Shown: positions 37,787-52,536, numbered from the stretch's first letter. The stretch is DNA of 56,481 nt from Candidatus Hodarchaeota archaeon (GCA_016839815.1 JAEOTM010000033.1:1-56481); one strand, 5' to 3'. Numbers and translations: made by a program. Notes: generated from the letters alone by a model not told the origin.

Positions 37787-38815
37787 ATGTCATTATTGAA
37801 AAGGTTATTCCGACGAAGAGAGAAAGTCAAAGATATCGAATCGAAAGAGCTCATAGCGGAAAAATTAATTACATTTATTGGGCTTGGTATGGCGGGAAAG
37901 ACTACCATACTACAAAGACTCCGTACAGGGGAGTTTCATGGTAATTCAATTAGAACCATGGGTTTAAATGTTGATTCATTTGAATATCGGGATGTAAACT
38001 TCCAAGCGTTTGATCTAGGAGGTCAAGAAGCCTTCCATATGATATGGGAGGACTATTTACGAATTGCGTCGGCTATTGTTTACGTTATTGATTGCTCCTC
38101 TCCAGAAACTTTTGAAGAAAGCAAAGCTGCACTATTCAATGCTCTTCCCAATATCAAACCAGGTGGTATTTTGCTAGTAGCAGCAAATAAGGCAGACCTC
38201 TCAGGAGTCGATCCTTATGTCTTATTATTGCAACACTTTGACCTATATGAAATACAGCAAAAAGGACAATTTAAAGCGGTCAATATCTTCCACATGTCAG
38301 CTAAATCTGGTGTAAATTTTTATCAGGCATTTGATTGGTTAATTGAGACCTTAACAGGAGAAGTGATTCTCCCCAAAATTAATATTCATAACGTCTGTAT
38401 ATATAAAACTGAATCTGGTTTACTAGTTGGAACAAGTGCTAAGGAAGAAGAGGTTACATACGATCCTTCTATGTTGACAAGCATGTTTACAGCGGTAAAC
38501 ACGTTCGCCCAAGCTTCATTAGGTGCCGGGGTTAGAGAAATACTCATGAAACGTACTGGTAGCTCTGAATTAGATGAGAACTATAAATTGGTTCGGGTTG
38601 AAGAATCTGATTTCTCGGTTATTCTCATTGTTGATGAATCTGACTCAATGCGAAAAAGCCTCAAGATTGGAAAAGATTTACTTAACTGGACAAGAATACA
38701 AAGATCATCTATTGATGAGGAAACATTTTTAGAAACCATTGATGAAACAGAAATTCAAATCTATCTCAAATTGAAGTATCCAGATGATTTTAGAACAATA
38801 AAAGTCTCATCATAA
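37787..38815 (+). CDS. Arf/Sar-like small GTPase fused to a C-terminal longin domain
   Basis: G1 GLGMAGKTT, G2 RTMGLN, G3 FDLGGQ, G4 NKAD, G5 SAK; amphipathic N-helix MSLLKRLFRRR; longin HNVCIYKTESGLLV...MLTSMFTAVNTFA. Confidence 0.85.
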   Translation: MSLLKRLFRRREKVKDIESKELIAEKLITFIGLGMAGKTTILQRLRTGEFHGNSIRTMGLNVDSFEYRDVNFQAFDLGGQEAFHMIWEDYLRIASAIVYVIDCSSPETFEESKAALFNALPNIKPGGILLVAANKADLSGVDPYVLLLQHFDLYEIQQKGQFKAVNIFHMSAKSGVNFYQAFDWLIETLTGEVILPKINIHNVCIYKTESGLLVGTSAKEEEVTYDPSMLTSMFTAVNTFAQASLGAGVREILMKRTGSSELDENYKLVRVEESDFSVILIVDESDSMRKSLKIGKDLLNWTRIQRSSIDEETFLETIDETEIQIYLKLKYPDDFRTIKVSS

Positions 38816-38862: not shown

Positions 38863-40461
38863 CTATCTTCGGTTCATTCTCCTGAACCATTTCTTATTCT
38901 GTTTGTAGAGATTCTTGAATTCCGTAAATAAATCGTCGTAAAGTCTACGATGGTCTGGATTTGGAATAAATTCTTTATCATAATGACAGCACTGTTTTAC
39001 TTCATCCAAACTCTGGATTTCTCCTAAAGCCATTTTAGCGATTAACGCAGAACCTAATGCCCCTGCTTCTTGAGGATTTTCAACTCGCCTTATTCTTCTA
39101 TTCATAATATCGGCATATATTTGACACCATATCTCTGATTTTGCTCCTCCTCCTATAATTGAAAGCCACTCTACTTTTGAATAAAGGTTTTCAACTGTCT
39201 CAAGAGCCCATCGAGCATTTAACGCTACACCTTCAAAAACAGCCCTCAACAAATGACGTCGATCATGATCTAAGGAGAGATTAATTAAACCACCACGGAC
39301 ATGATCATCATCTAAGGGACATCTTTCCCCATATAACCAAGGCATAAACATCAAATATGTCCCACCTGCTGCTTTTGCACCAGGAGGACAATCTGAAACT
39401 AATTCGTCAAAGATTTCATAGATTTCCTTTTTCTCTTTGGATTCTAACTCCTCCTTAAAATAAAGAATATTATTTTTAGCCCATTCTAATGCGGAACCAG
39501 CAATCTCTTGATGACCTGTCACTAAATAGAATTGATCAGCAAATGCAGATCCCGTACAACCCGTGTAATGACTAATATCAACCTTTCTTTCAGAAACGTG
39601 GCCAGCTACCCAACCTGATGTTCCAATTTGGCAGTGAAGTTCTCCATCCAATACTGCACCTGAACCAATAGCGGCGGTTGTCATATCTCCTGCCCCATTG
39701 GCTACAGGAATGCCAGGAATTAAGCTTAAATCCGCAGCAGCCTTTTCAGACAATGGCCCGATAATATCGGTTGGTTTCCTCAATTCAGGCAACTTCTCCA
39801 TATCAATCCTAAAGGTCTTACATAATGATTTCGACCATTCATTCCGAGGTTTCCCTTTATCTTTTCGAGAATCCATTAACCACCAGATATAAGCAAGATC
39901 GGTAGAAGTTGCCATCTTCCCAGTCAATAAGAAAATAACATAATCCTTGACATCTAAAAATTTGAAAGTATTCTGAATAATTTCTGGATGGTTTTTTTGC
40001 AACCATAATATTTTAGGTATAACATCTTTCCCTGCCAAACCTGGAGATCCCCCTGTTATCTTCAGAAACTTTCTAAATAAACGGTAGGGGTTATAACCCA
40101 TTACTCGTGGCCAAGGCCACAGCTTGGACATCATTTCTGCACCTCGACCATCTAACCAGATCATACAATTCATTAGTGGTGTTCCAGAAGAATCTACGGG
40201 AAGACATCCCTGCATTTGTGAACTAAATGTAATAGCACTAATTTCAGAAGGATTTGTATTAGTCTTTTCCACTAGATCTCTTGTAGTATATGTTAGTGTT
40301 CGCCACCAATCAGCTGGATTATGCTCTGCATAACCTGCTTTAGGGTAGATAGTCTGATAATCCATGACTGAGGAATCAATAAACTCAATGTCATTGGAAA
40401 TTAAGACTGCTTTGGTACTAGTTGTTCCCAAATCATAGGCTAAAAACTTTTTTGTACTCAA
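38863..40461 (-). CDS. FGGY-family kinase (xylulokinase-like)
   Basis: YDLGTTSTKA, WLDGRG, GAGD, IGTSGW, PWLYGERCP, RAVFEGVA, GGGAKS. Confidence 0.9.
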   Translation of the reverse strand: MSTKKFLAYDLGTTSTKAVLISNDIEFIDSSVMDYQTIYPKAGYAEHNPADWWRTLTYTTRDLVEKTNTNPSEISAITFSSQMQGCLPVDSSGTPLMNCMIWLDGRGAEMMSKLWPWPRVMGYNPYRLFRKFLKITGGSPGLAGKDVIPKILWLQKNHPEIIQNTFKFLDVKDYVIFLLTGKMATSTDLAYIWWLMDSRKDKGKPRNEWSKSLCKTFRIDMEKLPELRKPTDIIGPLSEKAAADLSLIPGIPVANGAGDMTTAAIGSGAVLDGELHCQIGTSGWVAGHVSERKVDISHYTGCTGSAFADQFYLVTGHQEIAGSALEWAKNNILYFKEELESKEKKEIYEIFDELVSDCPPGAKAAGGTYLMFMPWLYGERCPLDDDHVRGGLINLSLDHDRRHLLRAVFEGVALNARWALETVENLYSKVEWLSIIGGGAKSEIWCQIYADIMNRRIRRVENPQEAGALGSALIAKMALGEIQSLDEVKQCCHYDKEFIPNPDHRRLYDDLFTEFKNLYKQNKKWFRRMNRR

Positions 40462-40476
40462 TAAATCACTTCACGA

Positions 40477-41847
40477 TTATAAATAGTCAATAGCTTCTTC
40501 CAACGACTTTTCAAAAACATCCAAGATATGGTCAGAATCCTCTTGTGTGATAGTAAGAGGGGGCTTGATTTTAACCACATTTCTATACAAAGAACCTGAA
40601 TCACTTGAAATGGGTGCGGATGTTCCGAAAATTACTCCATAATCATCTTTAGCAATATCTATGAGATCGGTGACTAATGTATTCGCAGGTTTCTTGGTTT
40701 CACGGTCTAATACCAATTCTATTCCAATCATCAATCCAGGACATCTGATATCCCCTATGTATTCTGATTCTTCTTGAAGAGCTTTCAATTTTTTAGTAAT
40801 ATACGCACCCTGTTTCCGAGTATTTTCTAATAGATTAGCTCTTTCCACATAATTCAAGAATATCAAGCCAGAGGCAAACATTAACGGATTAGCTCCAAAA
40901 GTTGAGTGTTCTTCAGCAGAATTAAAACCAGTTAAATCGTCACGACTAATGGTAACGCCCATCGGTAAACCACCACCAATTGCTTTTGTTAGACACGTAA
41001 TATCTGGTTTTACTCCGTCATAATACTCAGAAGAAAACCAATATCCAATCCGAGTAAGAAGTTGAGACTCATCCCAAATTAGGAAGATGTTATTTTTTTC
41101 AGTCCATTTTCTTAATTCTTTAATATACCTCTGAGGAGCAGGAATATGACCGCCAGGACCTTGAATTGGTTCCATTAGAATACCAGCTACCTTATCCAAC
41201 GAACCATATTCGATAAGATGTTTTGCGATCTCGAGACATTCTAAATTGCATGATTTTTCGTCTTGACTAGCGGGGCATCTGTAACAGTATGGAAAAGGAA
41301 TTTTTGATACTCTATCGAACCCCCAAGGGCGGAAACGGGTTACTCCTGCAAATCGTGTAGCTAAAGTCATCGTTGCTAATGAACTTCCATGGTAACCTCT
41401 TGTATAGGAATAGAAAGTCTCTGTTCCTGGATTGTTAATCATTGCTAATTTCAACGCGGCCTCAATAGCTGCTCCACCTCCCATCGCATTCACAGCAATT
41501 TTCGTCATCCCTTTAGGAGTAATAGAGGCAAGTTTATGGATAAAATTTATCCTAGGAATGGTAGGAAATCCATACCGAACATGGGTTAACCTTTTTACTT
41601 GTTCCGATACTCCATAGGCTACATCTGGATTGGCAAAACCTATGTTTGACGTCCAAGCTTGGCTGGTACAATCAAGAAATTCTTTTCCTGAATGATCTTT
41701 TAAATACACTCCTTTTCCTTCAATAAATACCTGATCATAAAACGGAACAAGACTTTTTTTGTGAACTGTCTTTAAATCTTCTTCTGTAAGTGACGTAATC
41801 CATTCAAGGATTTCTTCATCCTTAAATAACCTTTTTTGATTTTCCAT
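40477..41847 (-). CDS. Class III PLP-dependent aminotransferase-family enzyme, possibly a phospho-lyase
   Basis: GYHGSS, EPIQGPGG, WDESQ, PDITCLTKAIGGGLP, HSTFGANP, NVVKIKPPL. Confidence 0.85.
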   Translation of the reverse strand: MENQKRLFKDEEILEWITSLTEEDLKTVHKKSLVPFYDQVFIEGKGVYLKDHSGKEFLDCTSQAWTSNIGFANPDVAYGVSEQVKRLTHVRYGFPTIPRINFIHKLASITPKGMTKIAVNAMGGGAAIEAALKLAMINNPGTETFYSYTRGYHGSSLATMTLATRFAGVTRFRPWGFDRVSKIPFPYCYRCPASQDEKSCNLECLEIAKHLIEYGSLDKVAGILMEPIQGPGGHIPAPQRYIKELRKWTEKNNIFLIWDESQLLTRIGYWFSSEYYDGVKPDITCLTKAIGGGLPMGVTISRDDLTGFNSAEEHSTFGANPLMFASGLIFLNYVERANLLENTRKQGAYITKKLKALQEESEYIGDIRCPGLMIGIELVLDRETKKPANTLVTDLIDIAKDDYGVIFGTSAPISSDSGSLYRNVVKIKPPLTITQEDSDHILDVFEKSLEEAIDYL

Positions 41848-41870
41848 TCTGAATTTCCTGCCTTTAAAAC

Positions 41871-41911
41871 GTAAAAAAGTGGGAGTAGTTACAGAGAATC
41901 CACTTTTTTAC
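41871..41911. repeat. 12-bp perfect inverted repeat with a 17-nt loop upstream of the aminotransferase gene
   Basis: GTAAAAAAGTGG (41871-41882) pairs with CCACTTTTTTAC (41900-41911). Confidence 0.75.
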
Positions 41912-41993
41912 CTTAAGAATTTTTCCACCCTCACTATCGAGAAGTACCAAAAAGAATCCCCCCACATCTGCTGGTTTCTTTAACACGTCAGTA

Positions 41994-42374
41994 TCATTCA
42001 CGAATTCGTTCTTTCATAGAAAAGGGAATATCTCCATACTGCTCAGTTAAGAGCTGTGTAAATCGTAATTTATATTTTCCAACAGGTAAGGGTTGGTCTC
42101 TAGGAAAACGAAGAATTGCTAGCGTTTTTACGCTGAATTGAGCAGGATTTTGTTCATTGATTTTTTTATTCTTAATCACTTCATCGTTAATTATAACCTC
42201 AAAATCCTTATACTTTTCTTTTCCCTCAATCGTGTCACCTTTTATCTCGAATTTAATCGAATCAATGATAGTTGCGTCACTGATAGAATTCTTCATCTCT
42301 AATTGAAATCCCCCAACAACGTTTTTCAACGATTTCTTTACAAACAAGGTCCTCAATAAATCTTCATTTACCAT
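41994..42374 (-). CDS. Small beta-sandwich hypothetical protein
   Basis: 126-aa ORF in the operon (LFVKKSLKNVVGGFQLEMKN...GKYKLRF). Confidence 0.7.
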   Translation of the reverse strand: MVNEDLLRTLFVKKSLKNVVGGFQLEMKNSISDATIIDSIKFEIKGDTIEGKEKYKDFEVIINDEVIKNKKINEQNPAQFSVKTLAILRFPRDQPLPVGKYKLRFTQLLTEQYGDIPFSMKERIRE

Positions 42375-42454
42375 ATTAGTTCACTTAGTTAAGACAGTTT
42401 GTTGAATGAGACGTAAGAAATAATATAATAATAAAAAATTAACGGGGAAGAGGA

Positions 42455-43651
42455 TTAAAAATCGATTTCTTCCCCATTAAAGAAAGAGTTGTAGATCTTC
42501 ACGTAGTCCTCATAATCTACTCGTCTTGGGTTGGAAAGGGTACCAGAGTCATTAAGGGAGAAATCAATTACAGCCTCAATATTTGAATCATATTCCTCTT
42601 TCGATACTCCCATATCCTGCAAAGAGACAGGTAATTCCAGTTCGATTAATAACTTCTTAAACGCTGCTATTAAATTTTCAGTTAATTCCTCATTTGAACC
42701 GTCCTCTAATCCAACCCCACGAGCAAGATCCGCAATTCGCTCTGAAACTGCATTTCGATTGTACATCAGTGAATACAAGCAGGAAGCACCAATACACTGG
42801 GAATGAGGAATTTTCCATGCCGCTCCTATCGTATGACCTAGTGCGTGGCCTAATATAATTTGCGAATTTCCAAAACCCCATCCACTCATAGTTGCTGCAT
42901 TATGAAGCTTTTCCCTAACTTCATACTCAACCTCACCAGCTTTAGCCTGTTGATATGCTACTGGAATATTTCTCCATAATAATTTAAATGCATGAAGGAG
43001 TAATGCATCTGAAAAATCATTTGCCCAAGTGCTAAGATAACCCCCCACAGCATGACTTAATGCATCCAACCCAGTACCTGCGATTAGATGAGGAGGAAGG
43101 GTTTTCGTTAAGATCGGATCCAGAATCGTTATGTCAGCAACCAATTCACGATTACCAAAGGAGGCTTTACGCTCCGTATCAGAAGATTTATCTGTTAAAA
43201 CCGTTCCCCAAGTAACATCTGAGCCAGTTCCAGACGTAGTAGGAATATTTATAAGAATACACCCAGTTTTTTCTCGAAGTTTTAGTTCAGCAAAAGGATT
43301 TAACCCCTCAATGGCATCCATTCCATCTTCAGGTGAGGCCCACATTGGCCACATCCCTTTTGCAGAATCCATTACACTTCCCCCTCCTAATGCAATAATT
43401 ACATCTGGATGAGCTTGAGCTAGCTGTTTAGCTCCTTTTTCCACAACTTGAAGTGAGGGTTCACCAAGAATTTCATCAAAAATGGTAATTTTTGTTTCAG
43501 CTGCTTTTAACTGCTCCTCTACTAAAGATAGATGTAATTTCCTCATAACAGGATCTGTTACAATAAAAGCATGTTTGAAAGTCTTTTCAGAAAGAAATTC
43601 TAAGGCATCTTCACCAAATATGACTTTCCGAGGAGAGGTAAAGTCCCACAT
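42455..43651 (-). CDS. Iron-containing alcohol dehydrogenase
   Basis: ALGGGSVMDSAK, PTTSGTGSD, GLDALSHA, HALGH, PH metal ligands. Confidence 0.92.
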   Translation of the reverse strand: MWDFTSPRKVIFGEDALEFLSEKTFKHAFIVTDPVMRKLHLSLVEEQLKAAETKITIFDEILGEPSLQVVEKGAKQLAQAHPDVIIALGGGSVMDSAKGMWPMWASPEDGMDAIEGLNPFAELKLREKTGCILINIPTTSGTGSDVTWGTVLTDKSSDTERKASFGNRELVADITILDPILTKTLPPHLIAGTGLDALSHAVGGYLSTWANDFSDALLLHAFKLLWRNIPVAYQQAKAGEVEYEVREKLHNAATMSGWGFGNSQIILGHALGHTIGAAWKIPHSQCIGASCLYSLMYNRNAVSERIADLARGVGLEDGSNEELTENLIAAFKKLLIELELPVSLQDMGVSKEEYDSNIEAVIDFSLNDSGTLSNPRRVDYEDYVKIYNSFFNGEEIDF

Positions 43652-43664
43652 TACTTATGTTCTC

Positions 43665-44093
43665 CTAGGGATATTCTACGTTTTCGATCATTGTAGTGCA
43701 TTTCACTAACTCTTGGGCTGCTTTCAGTGCACGCATTAGCTTGGCCATTGATCTCGCTGAGCATTGTACGTCGAATTTTCGCTGCATAATTCCTTTTAAC
43801 GGTCCAATCTTCCCATCAAATAGCTTTAACCAATTTCCATACTTCCCCGCATATGTATATTCCACTTTGTCTGGGGCAGGTCTCTCAGGTGTAATTAAAT
43901 AGGCATCACGACACTTACCATGCCATAAATCGCAATAAATACTTGTTTCTTCAGTAAGTGTCCCTGTACCATCTGGTATCGTCTTGAAAATGAAGTCACC
44001 TTCCCAGTTTTTCGCTGCTTTTTCATATGCTTCACTTTCATTTATCTTCTTGACAAGTTCTGCAACCCATTCTTTTGAACCATAAACTACCAT
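43665..44093 (-). CDS. SCP2 sterol/lipid-binding domain protein
   Basis: YGSKEW...INESEAY...WEGDF...DLWHGKC...W..L.DGK..P.KGIMQRK. Confidence 0.8.
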   Translation of the reverse strand: MVVYGSKEWVAELVKKINESEAYEKAAKNWEGDFIFKTIPDGTGTLTEETSIYCDLWHGKCRDAYLITPERPAPDKVEYTYAGKYGNWLKLFDGKIGPLKGIMQRKFDVQCSARSMAKLMRALKAAQELVKCTTMIENVEYP

Positions 44094-44307
44094 TTGTATT
44101 TCCTTCTAACTTCTATTTTATTGCTTTTAACGATCTACATCCCTGAAATATTGAGCAGATCAGAATCTCTTTGAAGATTAATTTTGAAGTTTATAGACTT
44201 TCCTTAGGATAATCAATGCAAAGCTCAAGAATAGGCCTAGATTTTTAAGTAGAAAAAATACAGAGAGTGAATAACTGATTAAATTTTGGTTAACGAGTGT
44301 AGATACA

Positions 44308-46170
44308 ATGTTTGGATATATGGGAAAAATATTAAGAGTGAATTTGACAACAGGACAGATTTCAGAAGAAGTTCCAAATGAAACTGATTTAAAAATGTTT
44401 TTAGGAGGAGCTGGGTTGGCATCGAAATATTTATTTGATGAGGTCCCTAAAGGAGTTGATCCATTGGGTCCTGATAATAAATTGATCTTTATGACTGGAC
44501 CAATGACTGGAACGTCCTCTCCCAGCACCGGAAGATTTTCTGTTGTAGCGAAATCACCTCTAACTGGATTTTGGGGACAAGCTAATTCAGGAGGATTTTG
44601 GGGTAGAGATTTTAAACGATCGGGATATGACGGAGTAATATTTGAAGGAAAAGCAGAAAAACCTGTTTATTTAGTAACGGATAATGGGAAAGCAGAATTA
44701 CGTGATGCATCCCACCTTTGGGGTAAGAGTACTTCTGAAACAACGGCAAAAATTAAGGAGGATTTGGGAGAAAAGTTCAATGTGGCTTGTATTGGAATAG
44801 CAGGGGAGAATCAGGTTAGGTATGCAGCTATTATGAATGATGTTGATGAGAAGTATTGGGGAAGAGCTGCTGGGAGATGTGGGCTGGGAACGGTTATGGG
44901 GGCAAAAAACCTCAAAGCTATTGCTTCTCAAGGACGGATTCCTATAGAAATTGCCGAAGCAGAAGAATACCGCAAAAAAGCACGAGAAAGGTTTGATTGG
45001 GTGAACCAAAGCCTATTGAAAGTAACCCTTGAGGTATTTGGAACAGCTGCCATCCTCGATATGGTTAATCAAAGAGGAGGCTTGCCTTCACGAAATTGGC
45101 AAACAGGATATGTCGAACAATACGACCAAATAAATGGTGAGGCAATAAATGACACCATATTAGTTGGAGAAAAGGCTTGTTTTGCCTGTCCAATTGCCTG
45201 TGGTCGAGTTTCCGATATTAAAGACGGAAAATATAAATCCAAGGGAGAGGGGCCAGAATATGAGTCCATTGGTGCTTTCGGGAGTATGTGCGATATTTAC
45301 GATTTAAATGCTATTACCAAAGCTCACTTCCTCTGTAACGAATATGGAATTGACACGATTTCTGCGGGAGCAACGATCTCATTTGCCATGGAAGCTGTCG
45401 AAAAGGGAATCTTAACTGATACCAAAGGATCTAATATTAAATTTGGTGACCCTGATGTTATAATTGAGTTGATAGAAAAAATAGCTAAGCGAGAAGGTAT
45501 CGGCGACTTTTTAGCAGAGGGATCAAAAGCTATGTCGGAAACTCTTGGACAAGGGAGTGAAAAATTTGCAATGCACGTAAAAGGATTGGAGTTACCAGCC
45601 TATGACTCACGAGCAGCAAAAATCACTGGTTTAGCATATGCTACTGCTAATCGTGGAGGAGATCACATCACAGCGTATATTGAAGGACCAGCATTCATGT
45701 CCATGCCTTTTCTGATTGTCGATGAAGGAGAGGTTGATGAGGATGGACTCAAAGAAATCCCAGAAGAAGCACGAGTTGTGAAGGAATATGAAGATGCTTT
45801 TGGAGTTTTTGATGCACTTTCTGGATGTAAGTTTATGGGGATGGTATTAACAGGAGAAGATTGGGCCGATTTAATCCAAAGTCTGCTCGGGTATGAATTT
45901 ACTGAAAAAGATTTTAGACTGTTAGGAGAACGCATTTACAATATTGAAAGAGCATTCAATGTCCGGGAAGGACTCACAAGGGATGATGATACATTACCAG
46001 GAAGATTGTTAGAGGATCCCTTACCAGATGGACCAGCGGAGGGGCAAGTTGTTAATCTAGATCCAATGTTAGATGCCTATTACCAATATCGTGGTTGGGA
46101 TGATAATGGTAAACCTACTGCTGAAACGTTAACGAAGCTAGAACTAAATTGGCTTATAGATAAGATGTAA
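44308..46170 (+). CDS. aor: Tungsten aldehyde:ferredoxin oxidoreductase
   Basis: GYMGKILRVNL, AKSPLTG, GRAAGRCGLG, CFACPIAC, GPEYE, GIDTIS, RGGDH. Confidence 0.93.
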   Translation: MFGYMGKILRVNLTTGQISEEVPNETDLKMFLGGAGLASKYLFDEVPKGVDPLGPDNKLIFMTGPMTGTSSPSTGRFSVVAKSPLTGFWGQANSGGFWGRDFKRSGYDGVIFEGKAEKPVYLVTDNGKAELRDASHLWGKSTSETTAKIKEDLGEKFNVACIGIAGENQVRYAAIMNDVDEKYWGRAAGRCGLGTVMGAKNLKAIASQGRIPIEIAEAEEYRKKARERFDWVNQSLLKVTLEVFGTAAILDMVNQRGGLPSRNWQTGYVEQYDQINGEAINDTILVGEKACFACPIACGRVSDIKDGKYKSKGEGPEYESIGAFGSMCDIYDLNAITKAHFLCNEYGIDTISAGATISFAMEAVEKGILTDTKGSNIKFGDPDVIIELIEKIAKREGIGDFLAEGSKAMSETLGQGSEKFAMHVKGLELPAYDSRAAKITGLAYATANRGGDHITAYIEGPAFMSMPFLIVDEGEVDEDGLKEIPEEARVVKEYEDAFGVFDALSGCKFMGMVLTGEDWADLIQSLLGYEFTEKDFRLLGERIYNIERAFNVREGLTRDDDTLPGRLLEDPLPDGPAEGQVVNLDPMLDAYYQYRGWDDNGKPTAETLTKLELNWLIDKM

Positions 46171-46184
46171 TAACCAAAGGTGTT

Positions 46185-47867
46185 GTGAATATTGTGACTA
46201 CTTATGCTGACCAACCCTGGTTAAAGAGTTACTTTGTTGGGCCTATGAAGCTACCTAAAACCATGGCCCCTTATCCTGAAATCTCAGTCTATAAATTCCT
46301 TGAAGATTCCGCGTTAGAATATCCCGATAAAATTGCATGTGAATACTTAGATCAAAAATTAACCTATGATGAACTAAAACTTAAGGTTGACAAATTAGCA
46401 ACAGCATTTGCAGATTTAGGAGTAATGAAGAATGATAAAGTTGCAACAATACTCCCTACCTGTCCAGAATTCATAATCGTAGATTATGCACTCATGCGGC
46501 TGGGTGCGGTTCATGTACCCCTTTCAATTCTTCATAAAGCACCAGATCTATTATATGAATTAAATGAATCAAAAGCAACGACCGTAATATGTTCATATCG
46601 GCGTCTCGAAAGAATAGAAGAAATTAGAGACAGAATTTCAATTAAAAACTTGATCTACTCTCCAATTCCACTTTTTCCAGACTATGAAACTCCAGAAGTG
46701 CAAGGAAGCCCGGATGCTCTTAGATTGGAAGATCTAATCGAGAAATATGATCCCAACCCTCCCGATGTTACAATAAATGCCAAAGAAGATCTGGCTCTAC
46801 TTCCTTTCACAGGTGGTACAACTGGAGTTCCCAAAGGAACGATGTTATCCCATTATAACATCACATCTAATGTAATCCAATCGTTACAATGGTTTTTACA
46901 TCCTCTTGAGCGGGGAGTCAAGGGGAAATCTGCTACCTTAATTTGTGTACCTATTTTTCATCAGTACGGTCATTGGGCGATTCATGCGTCAATTTCTTGG
47001 GGCATGAGAATGGTTTTGGTAGATGCACGGGACATAGATCGAATCGCTGAGCTAGTCAAAAAGGTACGTCCATTCTCAGTCTACGGAGTACCAACACATT
47101 ATATGGAACTATTACAGAAAGATATCAAAAAAATGCCAATTGTATATATTTCAGGAGCAGCAGCTTTACCACCCGATGTAGCTGATAAATTTGAGAAGAA
47201 AACAGGTGTACCCATGACAGAAGGATATGGTATGACAGAAACAAGTCCGTTAACGCATATAAATCTATCAGCTATATCCAAAGTTACACGTTTCATGACC
47301 AAAGTTAAACGGGGAATTGGCGTTCCTGCTCCAGATACTGAAGTGAAACTTGTTGATCCTGATACTGGAAAAGAAGTACCCTTTGGTGATGAAGGGGAAA
47401 TCTGGGTACGTGGACCACAAGTAATGTTGGGATATTGGCCTGAAAAGGGAAAAGGGTTACAGAAGAATGGATGGTTAGCAACAGGGGATATAGGGAAAAT
47501 GGATGAAGATGGCTACTTTCAGATAGTTGATAGAATTAAAGACATGATTAATGTGTCAGGGATGAAAGTCTATTCCCGTGTGATTGATGATGCCCTTCAT
47601 ACCCATCCAGCTATCCGCATGGCGGGAGTTATTGGACTCCCAGATCTCGATCGACCTGGAAGTGAACGAGTAAAAGCATTTGTGATCCTCAGAGATAGAG
47701 ATAAAGGTTCAGTAACTGCAGAGGATATTCTAGAGTTTTGTAAAGAGACACTTCCTCCTTATGCTGTTCCTAAACAAATCGAAATTCGTGATTTTCTCCC
47801 GCTTACTCGCGTCATGAAGTTAGATAAAAAGAAGCTCAAAGCAGAAGAGACTCAGAAAGCTCCCTAA
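46185..47867 (+). CDS. Long-chain fatty-acid--CoA ligase (AMP-binding)
   Basis: FTGGTTGVPKG, EGYGMTETSP, TGDIG, DRIKDMI, YAVPK. Confidence 0.9.
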   Translation: MNIVTTYADQPWLKSYFVGPMKLPKTMAPYPEISVYKFLEDSALEYPDKIACEYLDQKLTYDELKLKVDKLATAFADLGVMKNDKVATILPTCPEFIIVDYALMRLGAVHVPLSILHKAPDLLYELNESKATTVICSYRRLERIEEIRDRISIKNLIYSPIPLFPDYETPEVQGSPDALRLEDLIEKYDPNPPDVTINAKEDLALLPFTGGTTGVPKGTMLSHYNITSNVIQSLQWFLHPLERGVKGKSATLICVPIFHQYGHWAIHASISWGMRMVLVDARDIDRIAELVKKVRPFSVYGVPTHYMELLQKDIKKMPIVYISGAAALPPDVADKFEKKTGVPMTEGYGMTETSPLTHINLSAISKVTRFMTKVKRGIGVPAPDTEVKLVDPDTGKEVPFGDEGEIWVRGPQVMLGYWPEKGKGLQKNGWLATGDIGKMDEDGYFQIVDRIKDMINVSGMKVYSRVIDDALHTHPAIRMAGVIGLPDLDRPGSERVKAFVILRDRDKGSVTAEDILEFCKETLPPYAVPKQIEIRDFLPLTRVMKLDKKKLKAEETQKAP

Positions 47868-47897
47868 GATTTTGACAAATATTCTAGAGGGATTCAT

Positions 47898-48206
47898 CTG
47901 TCAACCACAACAGAAAAACCACCAATAACGGTAATAACCAGATTTTTTGGTGCATTTAAGCAAGTTACAGAGAAAAGAGATATCGAAATCACACTTCCTC
48001 AAGGAGGAACAGTCGTTAATTTACTTGCTAAAGCTATCGGGGAGTTTCCGAAGTTACAGGGATTGTTGCTGGATGATAATCTCCAACTAGGTAGCTGGGT
48101 TGTTATACTGATCAATGGAAGAAATATGAGTATTTTTGATGGTATAGAAACACAATTAAGTGAGGGTGATGTGGTTGCCATCTTTCCTCCTGTTGCTGGA
48201 GGTTAA
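47898..48206 (+). CDS. MoaD/SAMP ubiquitin-like sulfur carrier (not in ORF track; probable CTG start)
   Basis: Translates ...ITVITRFFGAFKQVT...VILINGRNM...LSEGDVVAIFPPVAGG-stop; GAGGG lies just upstream of CTG 47898. Confidence 0.88.
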   Translation: MSTTTEKPPITVITRFFGAFKQVTEKRDIEITLPQGGTVVNLLAKAIGEFPKLQGLLLDDNLQLGSWVVILINGRNMSIFDGIETQLSEGDVVAIFPPVAGG

Positions 48207-50068
48207 AATCGACGTTTTCTCCGATGATATAAGACGGGGATAAGAATGAAGCAGGAGAGGAGTGTTCTAAGCCACATAAATCCAGAAGTACTCGCTAAAG
48301 TAGGGAGTGCACTAGTAGTAGAATCTTCTGTCGTTGTAGAACTTGATTCACTCTGAGATGTTGGATACTGCTGGGAATTCTCAATATATATGGTAATGGA
48401 AGTTATAGTATACAAACCTCCAATTCTACTTACATTCATTGAGAGAGTATATTCTCCATTAGATAGGCCAATGATATATGCCCAGAATTCAATATTTCCA
48501 AAATCTAATGAGATGTTTGTTAAAACATTGTAATACCCAGTGCTATTAGAGAGAATAAAGAGTATAAAGGAGATATTAGATGATCTAACTGTAGCTGAGA
48601 CATGCATTAGGTCAGTAATTATGGCACCATTAGTAGGAGAATTAAAAACAAATTTTTCATTACCTGTTATCCAAAAATCCATATTTGCATAATTATTCTT
48701 TGCATAATTCATGAATTCATTTGTCAAGTCAGTACGGATGTTTGGATCTGATAGATAATCTAATTGGAGGATTGAGGCTTCGGCTATGGATATCTTCGGT
48801 TTACTCACCAAATTTGATATATAAAGGAATTCCGGCTCAGTAATTAGCATATTATCCTTAAAGGCAGAGACAAGAGCTTTCCAAGCACTGTATAATTCTT
48901 GATGTGAGTGTGTTACTGCTCCTTCAAAATAAAAAGTGACAATATCATATATTTCTGTAGCTAAATCAAAATCAAAAGTAATTCCTGTTATATTGTGCAA
49001 TTTAATATAATCTTCATATAAGTCCTGCCTTTCATAGCCATTTATCTGTAAGGACAACGAAAAAGCATCTTCAACAACAGGAATTCGATCCAGACTATTA
49101 TCTAAACAGAGGGCCTGACCTTCAGGTGATAAAACAAAATCAATAAATGCTTCAGCCTGAACTCTCTCTTCCCCACTTGCACTTGAAGCTATTGCAATCG
49201 GTTCCACGGTTATCAAGGATCCTCCGGTTGGAATGATATACTCACATGAGGGATTCATGAATTCTGCTTGATAACCATACGAATCTATGGCTAATCCTAT
49301 CGCATGTTCACCAGTAATCACAGAATCACGAACAGCAGAGGTATAATCGTAGATTTCGGCGTTTCCAGCCATTCTAGTAATTAGATTCCAACCAAATTCC
49401 CACCCATAATTCTGTAGAATAGAATGATAGATGTAAGTATTTGAAATAGACTCTGGTGCATTCGTCATGCCAAGAGCAACTTGATCGGAATCCAAAAAAT
49501 ATTCAGGAGAAGCAAGATCCTCCCAAGTTTGAGGGAGAGATAGGTTATTTGAAGTTAAACTATCATGATTTACGAGAAATCCATAAGAAGACAGACATGA
49601 TCCTACCCAAAGGATTGAGCCTGATTCATTAGTTCTGATTGTCTGAACTCCTTCAATATCATTTGTTACATTCGCATTTATATAATTCGTTAATGTTTGG
49701 TTCTCTATCGGCACCAAATAGCCCGCATCGGCAATTATATCAAAAATTCCCTGAAGGCCACCCCATACTAAATCTATTGAATAGGAAGGGTTAGCAATTG
49801 CTGATATCCACCTATTTGTATCAGAGATTTCTAACCATAATATATCATCCACGGCAGGATTTTGAGCAAGGAAAGCATTTTCAAAGGTATTATAGATATT
49901 TGAACTATATCGTGTAATAGCCTGTAGAACCACACCAGCATTGATATTATCCCCCGTATTGTAATAAACTTCTCCATTCCCTTTATTAAATGCCATAGAA
50001 AATACAAAAACGATTATCAGAGCAAAAATTATGATTTTTCTATGTTTCACTATTAATCTACCTCTCAA
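48203..50068 (-). CDS. ABC-type extracellular solute-binding protein (Fe3+/thiamine-like) with an Ig-like domain and CTERM-type anchor
   Basis: N-terminal signal; PQTWEDLA, AEAFIDFVLSPEGQ; Ser/Thr linker, TSGF, TM, RRKRRF. Confidence 0.85.
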   Translation of the reverse strand: MRGRLIVKHRKIIIFALIIVFVFSMAFNKGNGEVYYNTGDNINAGVVLQAITRYSSNIYNTFENAFLAQNPAVDDILWLEISDTNRWISAIANPSYSIDLVWGGLQGIFDIIADAGYLVPIENQTLTNYINANVTNDIEGVQTIRTNESGSILWVGSCLSSYGFLVNHDSLTSNNLSLPQTWEDLASPEYFLDSDQVALGMTNAPESISNTYIYHSILQNYGWEFGWNLITRMAGNAEIYDYTSAVRDSVITGEHAIGLAIDSYGYQAEFMNPSCEYIIPTGGSLITVEPIAIASSASGEERVQAEAFIDFVLSPEGQALCLDNSLDRIPVVEDAFSLSLQINGYERQDLYEDYIKLHNITGITFDFDLATEIYDIVTFYFEGAVTHSHQELYSAWKALVSAFKDNMLITEPEFLYISNLVSKPKISIAEASILQLDYLSDPNIRTDLTNEFMNYAKNNYANMDFWITGNEKFVFNSPTNGAIITDLMHVSATVRSSNISFILFILSNSTGYYNVLTNISLDFGNIEFWAYIIGLSNGEYTLSMNVSRIGGLYTITSITIYIENSQQYPTSQSESSSTTTEDSTTSALPTLASTSGFMWLRTLLSCFILIPVLYHRRKRRF

Positions 50069-50174: not shown

Positions 50175-51512
50175 CTAAAGACGGGTGTCTGAGACTCCCC
50201 ATGTTTCCATTGCTCTAGCAAGCTCAGGATATTCATCTTCATGATCTTCCACATAATCCTCAAAATCTTCTGAGGCTTCTTTCATATCTTTCATACCAAT
50301 ATCAATAGCCTGTCTAAATGCTGTAGCACCAGCAATTGGCCCATCGGGATGTGCATGAATTCCACCTCCAGAACCAATCATACAATCATTTCCAAGATCT
50401 TGCATGACCCGTAACACCATACCAGGAGTAATTCCGCCACTAGGCATGGGTAAAACGGGTTTAAGATGATGCATTCTATATCGATGAGCTTTCGCTATTT
50501 CCATATATCTCTCCTTCAAATAGGGGGCTTTTCCGTAAGGAGCAGGATAAACAACAGTATCAGCACCAGCTAATCGGGCGAGCTTTCCCATAATTAAAAA
50601 TGAAGAGACACCTGAAAAAGGAGATTCATAGAATGCTCCTGCGAAATCCATGTGTCCTAAGATTGGAAGCTTAATTTCTGGATCTTCAGCAAGCATACGT
50701 AAAGCTGGAAACCCAACAACTAAATAATTAAGCATCAGTGCATTTCCTCCGGCATCTTGTACGGCTAGAGCGTTCTCTTTCAATTTCATGATTTTATCCG
50801 TTATGTTAACGGTATATAAGGTCTCCTCACCAATTTCATCTCGGACTTTGTCTACTGCTTCCATCATAAGAGGGACACGATCAGCTACACGATTATAATC
50901 CATGTCTGCTATTAATTCATCGTCTTTAACTATGTCACACCCACCTTTAGCAGCAGCATAGAATAATTGAGCACCTACTTCCGGTGTCCATCCGCTACAT
51001 GGTTTAATCATATTGTTCAAGAGAGGTCTATCTGGTACCTTAAGCAGTTTACGGATACCTTCAATTCCGAACTTCGGCCCTTGGAAATTTTTGATCCAAT
51101 TTTTTGGAAAACGCAGATCAAGCATTTTCAGCTTACCTCCCATCGAAATATTTCCAATGGTGGCAGTAAGCATTAGACCTATTTGATCGGTTTGATTAAT
51201 TGTTGGAAAGGCGATTTGATAAATAAAATTTCGTTCTTCTACACCTTTTGGAATTTCAAATTCGTGAGATGGCACTTCATAAATCCCAAGTACCTTTGCT
51301 CCATATTTTGAGCGTAACTCAGGAGTATTAGCTGGAACAGGAACCCACGTTCCTGTACTTTGTTCACAGGCTGCTGCACGTCCCATATACCACGGATCCA
51401 TTCTAGGACCTAACTGAACCATATAGGTTCCAATTATATACTCTTCAGGGTTAAGTCCTTCTTGAAGAGCTTCTTCTATCGGATCATACTGTGCAAAAAT
51501 ATCTTTAGGCAT
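50175..51512 (-). CDS. RuBisCO-like protein (form IV)
   Basis: EQSTGTW, GPKFGIEG, IKPCSG, KDDE, SGG, GGGIHAHP; several carboxylase residues are substituted. Confidence 0.9.
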   Translation of the reverse strand: MPKDIFAQYDPIEEALQEGLNPEEYIIGTYMVQLGPRMDPWYMGRAAACEQSTGTWVPVPANTPELRSKYGAKVLGIYEVPSHEFEIPKGVEERNFIYQIAFPTINQTDQIGLMLTATIGNISMGGKLKMLDLRFPKNWIKNFQGPKFGIEGIRKLLKVPDRPLLNNMIKPCSGWTPEVGAQLFYAAAKGGCDIVKDDELIADMDYNRVADRVPLMMEAVDKVRDEIGEETLYTVNITDKIMKLKENALAVQDAGGNALMLNYLVVGFPALRMLAEDPEIKLPILGHMDFAGAFYESPFSGVSSFLIMGKLARLAGADTVVYPAPYGKAPYLKERYMEIAKAHRYRMHHLKPVLPMPSGGITPGMVLRVMQDLGNDCMIGSGGGIHAHPDGPIAGATAFRQAIDIGMKDMKEASEDFEDYVEDHEDEYPELARAMETWGVSDTRL

Positions 51513-51876: not shown

Positions 51877-52536
51877 TTAATTGTTCGTCCGTCGCCAATC
51901 GAGCAGTCCTGTTTGTTCGAAGATCTTGAATATAGCTATTCCTAGATATCCACCGAGAATTGATCCAAGAATGAAAGTTAACACTATCAGAATAACATAA
52001 ACTTCTATGGTATGATCATATCCTAGAAATGTTTCTAATTGAATGATTATATTTGAAACAGCCGCTAGTCCTGCAGACACAGCTATACACATGTGTCGTA
52101 ACCTTTTTTCTCTGAAAAAATTACTTAAAAGAAAAACTGATACTTCAAACACGATAGCTCCCCCTGTCGCAATCAAAAGTGCGAAAATACCAAGGGTATT
52201 TCCAGAAAATAATTCTACTAATCCCTTTATTATTCCAGCAACAAAAACTGCTCCAATTTTTTCATTTACCCACAAATAGATTAGTACAAACCAGATAATA
52301 TGTAATCCTGCAAAAATTTGACCGAATCCAGGTATCCCCAATGGTTTGAATACTGCACGAATAAAATTGGCAATGATTGAGCTTGATAGACCTCCCAAAG
52401 CTGCAAATAAGGCTATTATTACTAAATCTGATGTTTCAAAGTAATAGGGTGTTTGTGGGGCTTTTTTTAGTTCCTTGGAGTTATTTTCTGGTTTCATCCC
52501 GTTTTTTATCTCCTCTGATGTAAGTTGTTTTCCCAT
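51877..52536 (-). CDS. ECF transporter S component
   Basis: FETSDLVIIALFAALGG; KIGA..AGIIKGLVE; about 6 TM segments. Confidence 0.75.
   Translation of the reverse strand: MGKQLTSEEIKNGMKPENNSKELKKAPQTPYYFETSDLVIIALFAALGGLSSSIIANFIRAVFKPLGIPGFGQIFAGLHIIWFVLIYLWVNEKIGAVFVAGIIKGLVELFSGNTLGIFALLIATGGAIVFEVSVFLLSNFFREKRLRHMCIAVSAGLAAVSNIIIQLETFLGYDHTIEVYVILIVLTFILGSILGGYLGIAIFKIFEQTGLLDWRRTNN

Follow-up and report, generated by a model that had tools for sequence, protein, structure and literature searches.

The window analysed here, a stretch of 56,481 nucleotides from Candidatus Hodarchaeota archaeon (GCA_016839815.1 JAEOTM010000033.1:1-56481; Hodarchaeales, Heimdall-group Asgard), contains a tight three-gene operon, hereafter the trio, for a 126-residue protein (hyp126), a class III pyridoxal 5'-phosphate (PLP) enzyme and an FGGY-family kinase, together with a gene for a RuBisCO-like protein (RLP). 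The explanation favoured here, with confidence a little short of even, is that the trio carries out transamination and phosphorylation that feed the RLP. A sequence-only reading of the segment 38863-48206 had proposed an eight-gene route from an amino-alcohol to acyl-CoA through a kinase, a PLP-dependent phospho-lyase and an aldehyde:ferredoxin oxidoreductase (AOR). The present annotation extended to 52536, with gene calls backed by Pfam and NCBIfam profile matches and bit scores compared with family cut-offs. All eight of those genes were recovered at the stated positions as open reading frames with matching families, and the RLP, which lies beyond the borders of that segment, probably uses what the kinase makes.

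Recurrent pairing of FGGY kinases with RuBisCO-like proteins

The RLP gene (50175..51512, minus strand) matched RuBisCO_large with 150 bits (PF00016 and PF02788), and its product found its best PDB match in a 2,3-diketo-5-methylthiopentyl-1-phosphate (DK-MTP-1-P) enolase (2oek, 260 bits), while true RuBisCOs scored at most 195 bits. These scores point to the form IV YkrW/MtnW branch and make the window protein a putative enolase. Gene sets were compared across 21 genomes of one Hodarchaeales genus, including the study genome (G000), and RLP orthologues of 84-96% identity were present in 17 of them. In seven genomes (G000, G002, G007, G010, G011, G019 and G020), one contig carried both the RLP and the trio, 7-14 kb apart.

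Counterparts were examined in 51 bacterial loci whose RLPs were 52-57% identical to that of the window, mainly from Dehalococcoidia and other Chloroflexota, plus Caldisericota, Actinomycetota and Planctomycetota. An FGGY kinase gene stood directly upstream of the RLP gene in 39 of the 51, and in 38 of the 43 for which 1.7 kb or more of upstream sequence was available. Twelve of the 51 loci also held a HemL-like class III enzyme which, with 31% identity to the window PLP enzyme over 121 residues, looks like a non-orthologous replacement of the amine-handling step. No paper on the FGGY-RLP pairing was found in the literature collection searched.

The window kinase (532 residues; 38863..40461, minus strand) possesses both FGGY domains (FGGY_N 145 bits, FGGY_C 113 bits). 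Its score against TIGR01312 XylB was 294 bits, below the cut-off of 380, which decides neither for nor against a plain xylulokinase; by its profile matches it is an XylB-like family member of unassigned specificity. The genome encodes five FGGY paralogues, with GlpK at another site and a second paralogue likewise below the XylB cut-off, and all six of its APH genes are located outside the trio locus.

Three related clades were distinguished in the kinase tree: bacterial kinases encoded upstream of RLPs, PLP-linked kinases of Hodarchaeales, and a clade sister to the latter (SH-aLRT 97). The sister clade comprised four kinases, two of which follow RLP and aminotransferase genes (L092 and L095), while a third belongs to an RLP-MFS-FGGY operon (L109) and the fourth is a paralogue from contig C44 of the study genome (L139:9078-11898), with a saccharopine-dehydrogenase-like gene 19 nt upstream. 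This C44 kinase shares 51% identity with the kinases of bacterial RLP loci and is flanked by EamA and Na/H-exchanger genes. Kinases of the group repeatedly sit behind amine/carbonyl-interconverting enzymes of three unrelated types, of which the saccharopine-dehydrogenase-like one cannot be a phospho-lyase, and they also occur together with an RLP.

Proposed pathway

Because FGGY kinases recur beside RLPs and the sister kinases sit in amine or RLP contexts, a pathway through transamination, phosphorylation and the RLP is favoured. The trio would most likely act on an amino-alcohol or amino-polyol whose head group is of the 2-amino-1-hydroxy type. The PLP enzyme would swap the amine for a carbonyl, most likely by transamination, and the FGGY kinase would phosphorylate the adjacent primary hydroxyl at C1, before or after the loss of the amine. 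Transamination of amines bearing a β-phosphate without elimination is known from histidinol-phosphate aminotransferase. For a class III transaminase that works on sugar phosphates, GabT1 of azasugar synthesis is a precedent, and its consensus has the same VPxPYCxRC-type ending as the KIKPP clade described below (PMC8382821); the catalytic residues of the window PLP enzyme are intact. The resulting 1-phospho-2-keto compound would then be enolised, isomerised or cleaved by the RLP, a step that fits because the nearest solved relatives of the RLP, the DK-MTP-1-P enolases, act on 1-phospho-2-keto compounds.

Two known systems resemble this scheme in part. The window RLP scored best against the YkrW/MtnW DK-MTP-1-P enolases (2oek, 2zvi), and a kinase is teamed with it as in methionine salvage; unlike that pathway, an FGGY kinase takes the place of MtnK, no MtnA, MtnB or MtnX was seen nearby, and an aminotransferase-fold enzyme belongs to the set. 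In the FucK/FucA and RhaB/RhaD systems, the ketose 1-phosphate formed by an FGGY kinase is subsequently split. The proposed scheme shares the logic of placing an FGGY kinase beside a carbon-carbon or enol enzyme that handles a 2-keto-1-phosphate, but the downstream RLP is not a class II aldolase and the ketose-like substrate would derive from an amine.

Two units in the window

The minus-strand genes for the SCP2-domain protein, iron-type alcohol dehydrogenase (Fe-ADH), hyp126, PLP enzyme and FGGY kinase are co-directional, with gaps of 14, 80, 146 and 15 nt. Inspection of the flanks at eight trio loci in the genus found hyp126, the PLP gene and the kinase gene intact with short gaps in all eight, with hyp126 upstream of the PLP gene each time. 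A PLP orthologue of 72-92% identity occurred in about 18 of the 21 genomes, and only PLP paralogues of about 33% identity were found beyond the genus.

The remaining genes form a block of variable placement. Its minus-strand part comprises Fe-ADH (42455..43651; Fe-ADH 134 bits, ADH_Fe_C 131 bits, below every NCBIfam equivalog cut-off) and an SCP2-domain lipid-carrier-like protein (43665..44093; PF02036, 27.5 bits against a cut-off of 21.3). On the plus strand follow an AOR of the tungsto/molybdopterin family (44308..46170; AFOR_C 463 bits and AFOR_N 269 bits, both at full length) and a long-chain-type, AMP-forming (ANL) acyl-CoA ligase (46185..47867; AMP-binding 293 bits plus AMP-binding_C; top NCBIfam match PRK06187, 377 bits against a cut-off of 476). 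SCP2 was paired with Fe-ADH in every relative locus that spanned both genes. In G000, G002, G010 and G020 the block adjoined the trio without a break, as it did, minus the ligase, in G001. ORFan genes for proteins of 840-990 residues with no Pfam match part the two in G007 and G011, and the flanks retrieved for the G009 and G015 trios lacked the block. The ORFans lie between hyp126 and Fe-ADH (L015:11617-14565, L018:2568-5546 and L018:5708-8224, encoding 982, 992 and 838 residues).

Because the trio is always intact while the block varies among genomes, the window holds two units, a tight trio operon and a looser SCP2-FeADH / AOR-ligase(-MoaD) block. The coupling of kinase and PLP enzyme put forward earlier was borne out by the 15-nt gap kept across the genus; the idea of eight genes as one conserved set was not, given the variation of the block. 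The block is a genus-level add-on that may be linked to the trio in function. It would convert a hydrophobic alcohol or aldehyde to the acid and then to acyl-CoA with reduction of ferredoxin, its substrate possibly being a tail freed from a lipidic amino-alcohol. The hydrophobic amino-alcohol suggested earlier as the substrate is still plausible in view of SCP2 and the long-chain-type ligase, to the extent that the lipid block does serve the trio.

The PLP enzyme and the KIKPP clade

The PLP enzyme (456 residues; 40477..41847, minus strand) displays the PF00202 fold (Aminotran_3, 255 bits) with the Schiff-base Lys288 and the pyridine-nitrogen ligand Asp259. The motif YRNVVKIKPPL occupies residues 421-431 (NVVKIKPPL 423-431), and HMMER paired it with HRNVLKIKPPM of human ETNPPL (6tor), which confirmed that the motif is real and that the Arg-to-Lys change to KIKPP is common to the two enzymes. 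Racemases of the Pyrococcus type retain Arg at this site (NVLRI). The replaced Arg, at Lys426, presumably corresponds to Arg398 of E. coli GabT, whose partner Glu211 would be replaced by Pro231 (QGPGG).

Homologues of the enzyme were sought among 1.8 billion representatives; the nearest 150 were inspected, and a tree of 144 sequences was built. The nearest relatives (34-48% identity) nearly all carried NVxKIKPP plus a PYCYRC...C...C segment, and Lys stood at the motif site in 31 of the 150, spread over several branches. The query fell within a 23-member clade in which 19 members had Lys (support 0.80-0.98). Asp259, Gln262, Lys288 and Thr316 were invariant across this KIKPP clade, the catalytic residues being intact. 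The four-Cys segment (PYCYRCx8Cx3C, residues 186-204) was at least 90% conserved in the clade and may be a metal site. Database names of clade members were generic, such as "aspartate aminotransferase family" and "4-aminobutyrate aminotransferase-like".

The enzyme was also compared with all solved structures, by single sequence and by a profile of its own clade. Top solved relatives were a Pyrococcus aminotransferase (7vno, 175 bits), a thermophilic transaminase, isoleucine 2-epimerase, archaeal racemases and dialkylglycine decarboxylase. ETNPPL (6tor) ranked 28th in the single-sequence search (125 bits against 175 for the best) and 13th in the clade-profile search (312 against 355), and the Arthrobacter phospho-lyase was not among the best 60 solved relatives. 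The study genome further encodes a 759-residue Peptidase_M23-class III fusion that reads NVIKIKPP and falls outside the 23-member query clade. This fusion (L029:6248-8527, contig C19) has a PRK06148/AGXT2L-like architecture and adjoins a metallophosphoesterase gene, and it may be the more canonical phospho-lyase candidate of the genome. By these comparisons, ETNPPL is no specific relative of the window enzyme, which belongs to a large, unnamed KIKPP clade. In the literature collection searched, there was no description of this clade or of the trio module, and there were no residue-level criteria for the structural basis of phospho-lyase specificity; the PbfA paper confirms only that lyases are rare among class III PLP enzymes.

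Genomic contexts across the clade were diverse. In a gut Firmicute of the Butyricicoccaceae, genes for phosphotransferase system (PTS) components EIIA/B/C-GAT, DeoR, alanine dehydrogenase and a HAD phosphatase accompany the KIKPP gene; there, a DeoR-PTS IIB-EIIC-GAT-KIKPP operon is divergent from EIIA, the phosphatase and the dehydrogenase (L025:3654-8335) and looks, from its gene content, like an uncharacterised PTS-dependent amino-polyol pathway. At another locus (L048:2590-6982), an APH kinase gene overlaps the start of the KIKPP gene, followed by genes for a Mur ligase and a D-Ala-D-Ala ligase (Ddl); a relaxase-like gene lies nearby, and the locus may be a mobile element. Other contexts combined DeoR with sugar ABC transporters, or MocA-type dehydrogenases with AP_endonuc_2, whereas further ones contained MttB or URO-D methyltransferase genes or a teichoic-acid-like cluster, or had no informative neighbours. 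Three independent phosphorylating systems (FGGY, APH and PTS) occur in the clade, which makes phospho-substrates plausible. Many members, however, have no kinase nearby, and the clade as judged from these contexts cannot be equated with phospho-lyases.

hyp126

The gene for hyp126 (41994..42374, minus strand; PF25653, 44.5 bits) had been labelled hypothetical, a label that can now be improved upon. The AlphaFold2 model (pLDDT 87) resembled the beta chains of DgpB, DfgB and CGD in Foldseek (TM 0.63-0.66, E from 7e-5, identity 10-17%), so that hyp126 has a beta-sandwich fold like that of the beta subunit of C-glycoside deglycosidases (DgpB, DfgB, CarC). The likeness stops at the fold: besides the low identity, Pfam CGDB scored 19.5 bits, under its cut-off of 27.6, and a Pfam scan found no AP_endonuc_2/TIM-barrel alpha-subunit gene in the locus. 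Complex prediction for hyp126 with the PLP enzyme returned a score of 0.00, which has no bearing either way. PF25653 also occurs in other Asgard lineages, C-terminally in proteins of about 310 residues and N-terminally in proteins of about 510-530 residues (L044:5555-6490 and L045:2617-4203), and as a stand-alone gene beside unrelated genes in 40 of the 43 genomes of one Asgard family.

Alternative readings

Several observations weigh against the pathway proposed above. The whole case for it rests on gene neighbourhood. The closed genome G009 has RLP and trio 2 Mb apart, and G013, G014 and G015 carry the PLP gene without a close RLP orthologue. The window kinase is sister to, and not within, the clade directly upstream of bacterial RLPs. 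Lys426 replaces the Arg that holds the keto-acid carboxylate in ordinary class III transaminases, and Pro231 replaces its Glu partner, so that the enzyme has no obvious amino acceptor and a site like that of ETNPPL, and no adjacent gene that would regenerate an amino acceptor was found at the window locus. Finally, translation of the clade member at L048 is coupled to that of an APH kinase, as is classical for phospho-lyases.

An unlikely alternative is that the trio is a soluble amino-sugar or amino-alditol module, in which an amino-alditol would be phosphorylated by the kinase and converted by the transaminase to a ketose phosphate, and that lipids, AOR and RLP are unconnected with it, their adjacency being chance specific to the genus. 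Sugar-related neighbours in the clade (DeoR, sugar ABC and PTS transporters, MocA-type dehydrogenases and AP_endonuc_2 barrels), the fold of hyp126, otherwise known from a keto-sugar enzyme subunit, the XylB-like kinase and the solitary trio in G009 and G015 all agree with it. There is also a precedent, which this module would run in reverse: GabT1, from the azasugar three-gene cluster with its phosphatase and dehydrogenase genes, is a class III enzyme that transaminates sugar phosphates, and its consensus SGNxFRxxxFPNxxxxxxxLxVPxPYCxRC ends in VPxPYCxRC (PMC8382821). The window enzyme shares the class III fold, a possible sugar-phosphate substrate and the (V/I)PxPYCxRC segment, but the SGNxFR...FPN part is missing, a kinase is present instead of a phosphatase, and the host is an archaeon. 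Azasugar biosynthesis itself was rejected, as only the consensus tail fits (IPFPYCYRC) and the locus has no phosphatase. Against a stand-alone sugar module are also the recurrence of the kinase sister clade in RLP loci and the run of five co-directional minus-strand genes from SCP2 to FGGY with short gaps.

The route of the sequence-only reading, in which the FGGY kinase phosphorylates an amino-alcohol, a KIKPP phospho-lyase releases a carbonyl, ammonia and phosphate, and AOR or ADH and the ligase follow, is judged quite improbable and less likely than the transaminase-kinase-RLP pathway. The window enzyme does resemble ETNPPL and PHYKPL with their APH/HYKK-type kinases in its class III fold, in the Lys for the carboxylate Arg within RNVxKIKPP and in an adjoining kinase. 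RNV(V/L)KIKPP is common to human ETNPPL and the M23-class III fusion of the genome; the clade is coupled to FGGY, to APH through a start/stop overlap and to PTS, with HAD phosphatases near or fused; AOR, ADH and ligase genes adjoin the trio in most genomes of the genus; and the missing amino-acceptor partner would suit a lyase. Against this, however, ETNPPL is not the closest relative of the window enzyme in sequence, as the rank of ETNPPL among solved structures and the absence of the Arthrobacter enzyme from the best 60 indicated, the partner is an FGGY kinase and not a member of the APH/hydroxylysine-kinase family, and the genome has a separate AGXT2L/PRK06148-type fusion outside the query clade. 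Lys is present on several branches, and many clade members have no kinase gene close by.

The chemistry also argues against elimination. FGGY kinases phosphorylate primary hydroxyls, and elimination after phosphorylation at such a position would yield a methyl ketone in place of the aldehyde that AOR needs. Moreover, an RLP has to be supplied with a phosphorylated substrate, and a phospho-lyase would destroy it. Sister kinases pair with the saccharopine-dehydrogenase-like enzyme or sit in RLP operons, in which the phosphate has to be kept. The AOR block, in turn, is missing from the retrieved trio flanks in G009 and G015.

A more speculative extension of the transaminase-kinase-RLP pathway, to which only a small probability is assigned, is an oxygen-free route for sphingoid-type amino-alcohols. 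After deamination at C2 and FGGY phosphorylation at C1, the RLP would cleave or enolise a head group resembling ribulose 1,5-bisphosphate, namely a 1-phospho-2-keto-3-hydroxy compound, and the tail would pass through the tungsten AOR and the ligase to acyl-CoA.

Other PLP chemistry on the kinase substrate or product (an epimerase or racemase, a PbfA-type ammonia-lyase or a decarboxylase) is very unlikely: isoleucine 2-epimerase, archaeal racemases and dialkylglycine decarboxylase are among the best solved relatives and the PbfA model matched over full length with 209 bits, yet all scores, including those of every NCBIfam model, fell far under family cut-offs, racemases keep the Arg, and the neighbourhood offers no pointer.

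The MoaD-like gene and other neighbours

A ThiS/MoaD-fold protein with a C-terminal GG is encoded downstream of the ligase (47925..48206, plus strand; PF02597, 52 bits), and its start codon is uncertain. No ATG, GTG or TTG precedes the conserved N-terminus, and the open reading frame is in frame with the ligase beyond a single TAA, the 19 intervening codons being free of stops (47865-48206). An ATG opens the orthologue in G002 and a GTG that in G010, and the missing start in the window could reflect an ATT or ATA start, a small assembly error or read-through. This protein had been assigned to the synthesis of the AOR cofactor. In loci with AOR elsewhere, however, MoaD keeps its place next to the RLP, accompanied by the ligase in G009 and at a distance of 4 kb from the ligase in G001, and therefore MoaD does not track AOR; the order in G017 is RLP-MoaD-ligase, the contig stopping just past the ligase. 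MoaD thus accompanies the ANL ligase and the RLP, and a role as AOR maturation factor was set aside for want of synteny support in the genus, though AOR-ThiS pairs exist in Freyarchaeota.

Between MoaD and the RLP lies a gene for a membrane-anchored solute-binding protein of 621 residues (48203..50068, minus strand; SBP_bac_6/8/1/11 matches and a weak PhnS2 match), which combines a Ser/Thr-rich stalk with a C-terminal anchor and is weakly like polyamine- and aminoethylphosphonate-type binding proteins. It occupies this place only in the window genome and G018, is absent from it in G002, and is a lineage-specific insertion. Use of aminoethylphosphonate, to which the weak PhnS2 and PbfA matches might have pointed, was rejected in view of this insertion and of scores far below the cut-offs. 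Beyond the RLP, and co-directional with it, is a PF09819 (ABC_cobalt/ECF-S-like) membrane protein gene (51877..52536, minus strand; 40.6 bits), which also adjoins the RLP in G002, G009, G012 and G017. At the other end of the trio, a gene for an Arf-like GTPase of 342 residues (37787-38815) is convergent to the FGGY kinase gene, as in every sibling locus inspected, with no evident functional link.

Implications

The Arg-to-Lys motif by itself should not serve to call phospho-lyases. The KIKPP clade has thousands of metagenomic members, none of them characterised, and one defined member would seed their annotation. If the sphingoid route were true, it would be a new RLP function and a new fate of the sphingolipid backbone in the closest archaeal relatives of eukaryotes, applying to Hodarchaeales and, by analogy, to many uncultured anaerobic bacteria. 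RLPs of the YkrW/MtnW-like branch are without an assigned function outside methionine salvage. If the transaminase-kinase-RLP pathway holds, the set of FGGY kinase, RLP and aminotransferase that recurs across Asgard archaea and four or more bacterial phyla would represent a widespread undescribed catabolic route.

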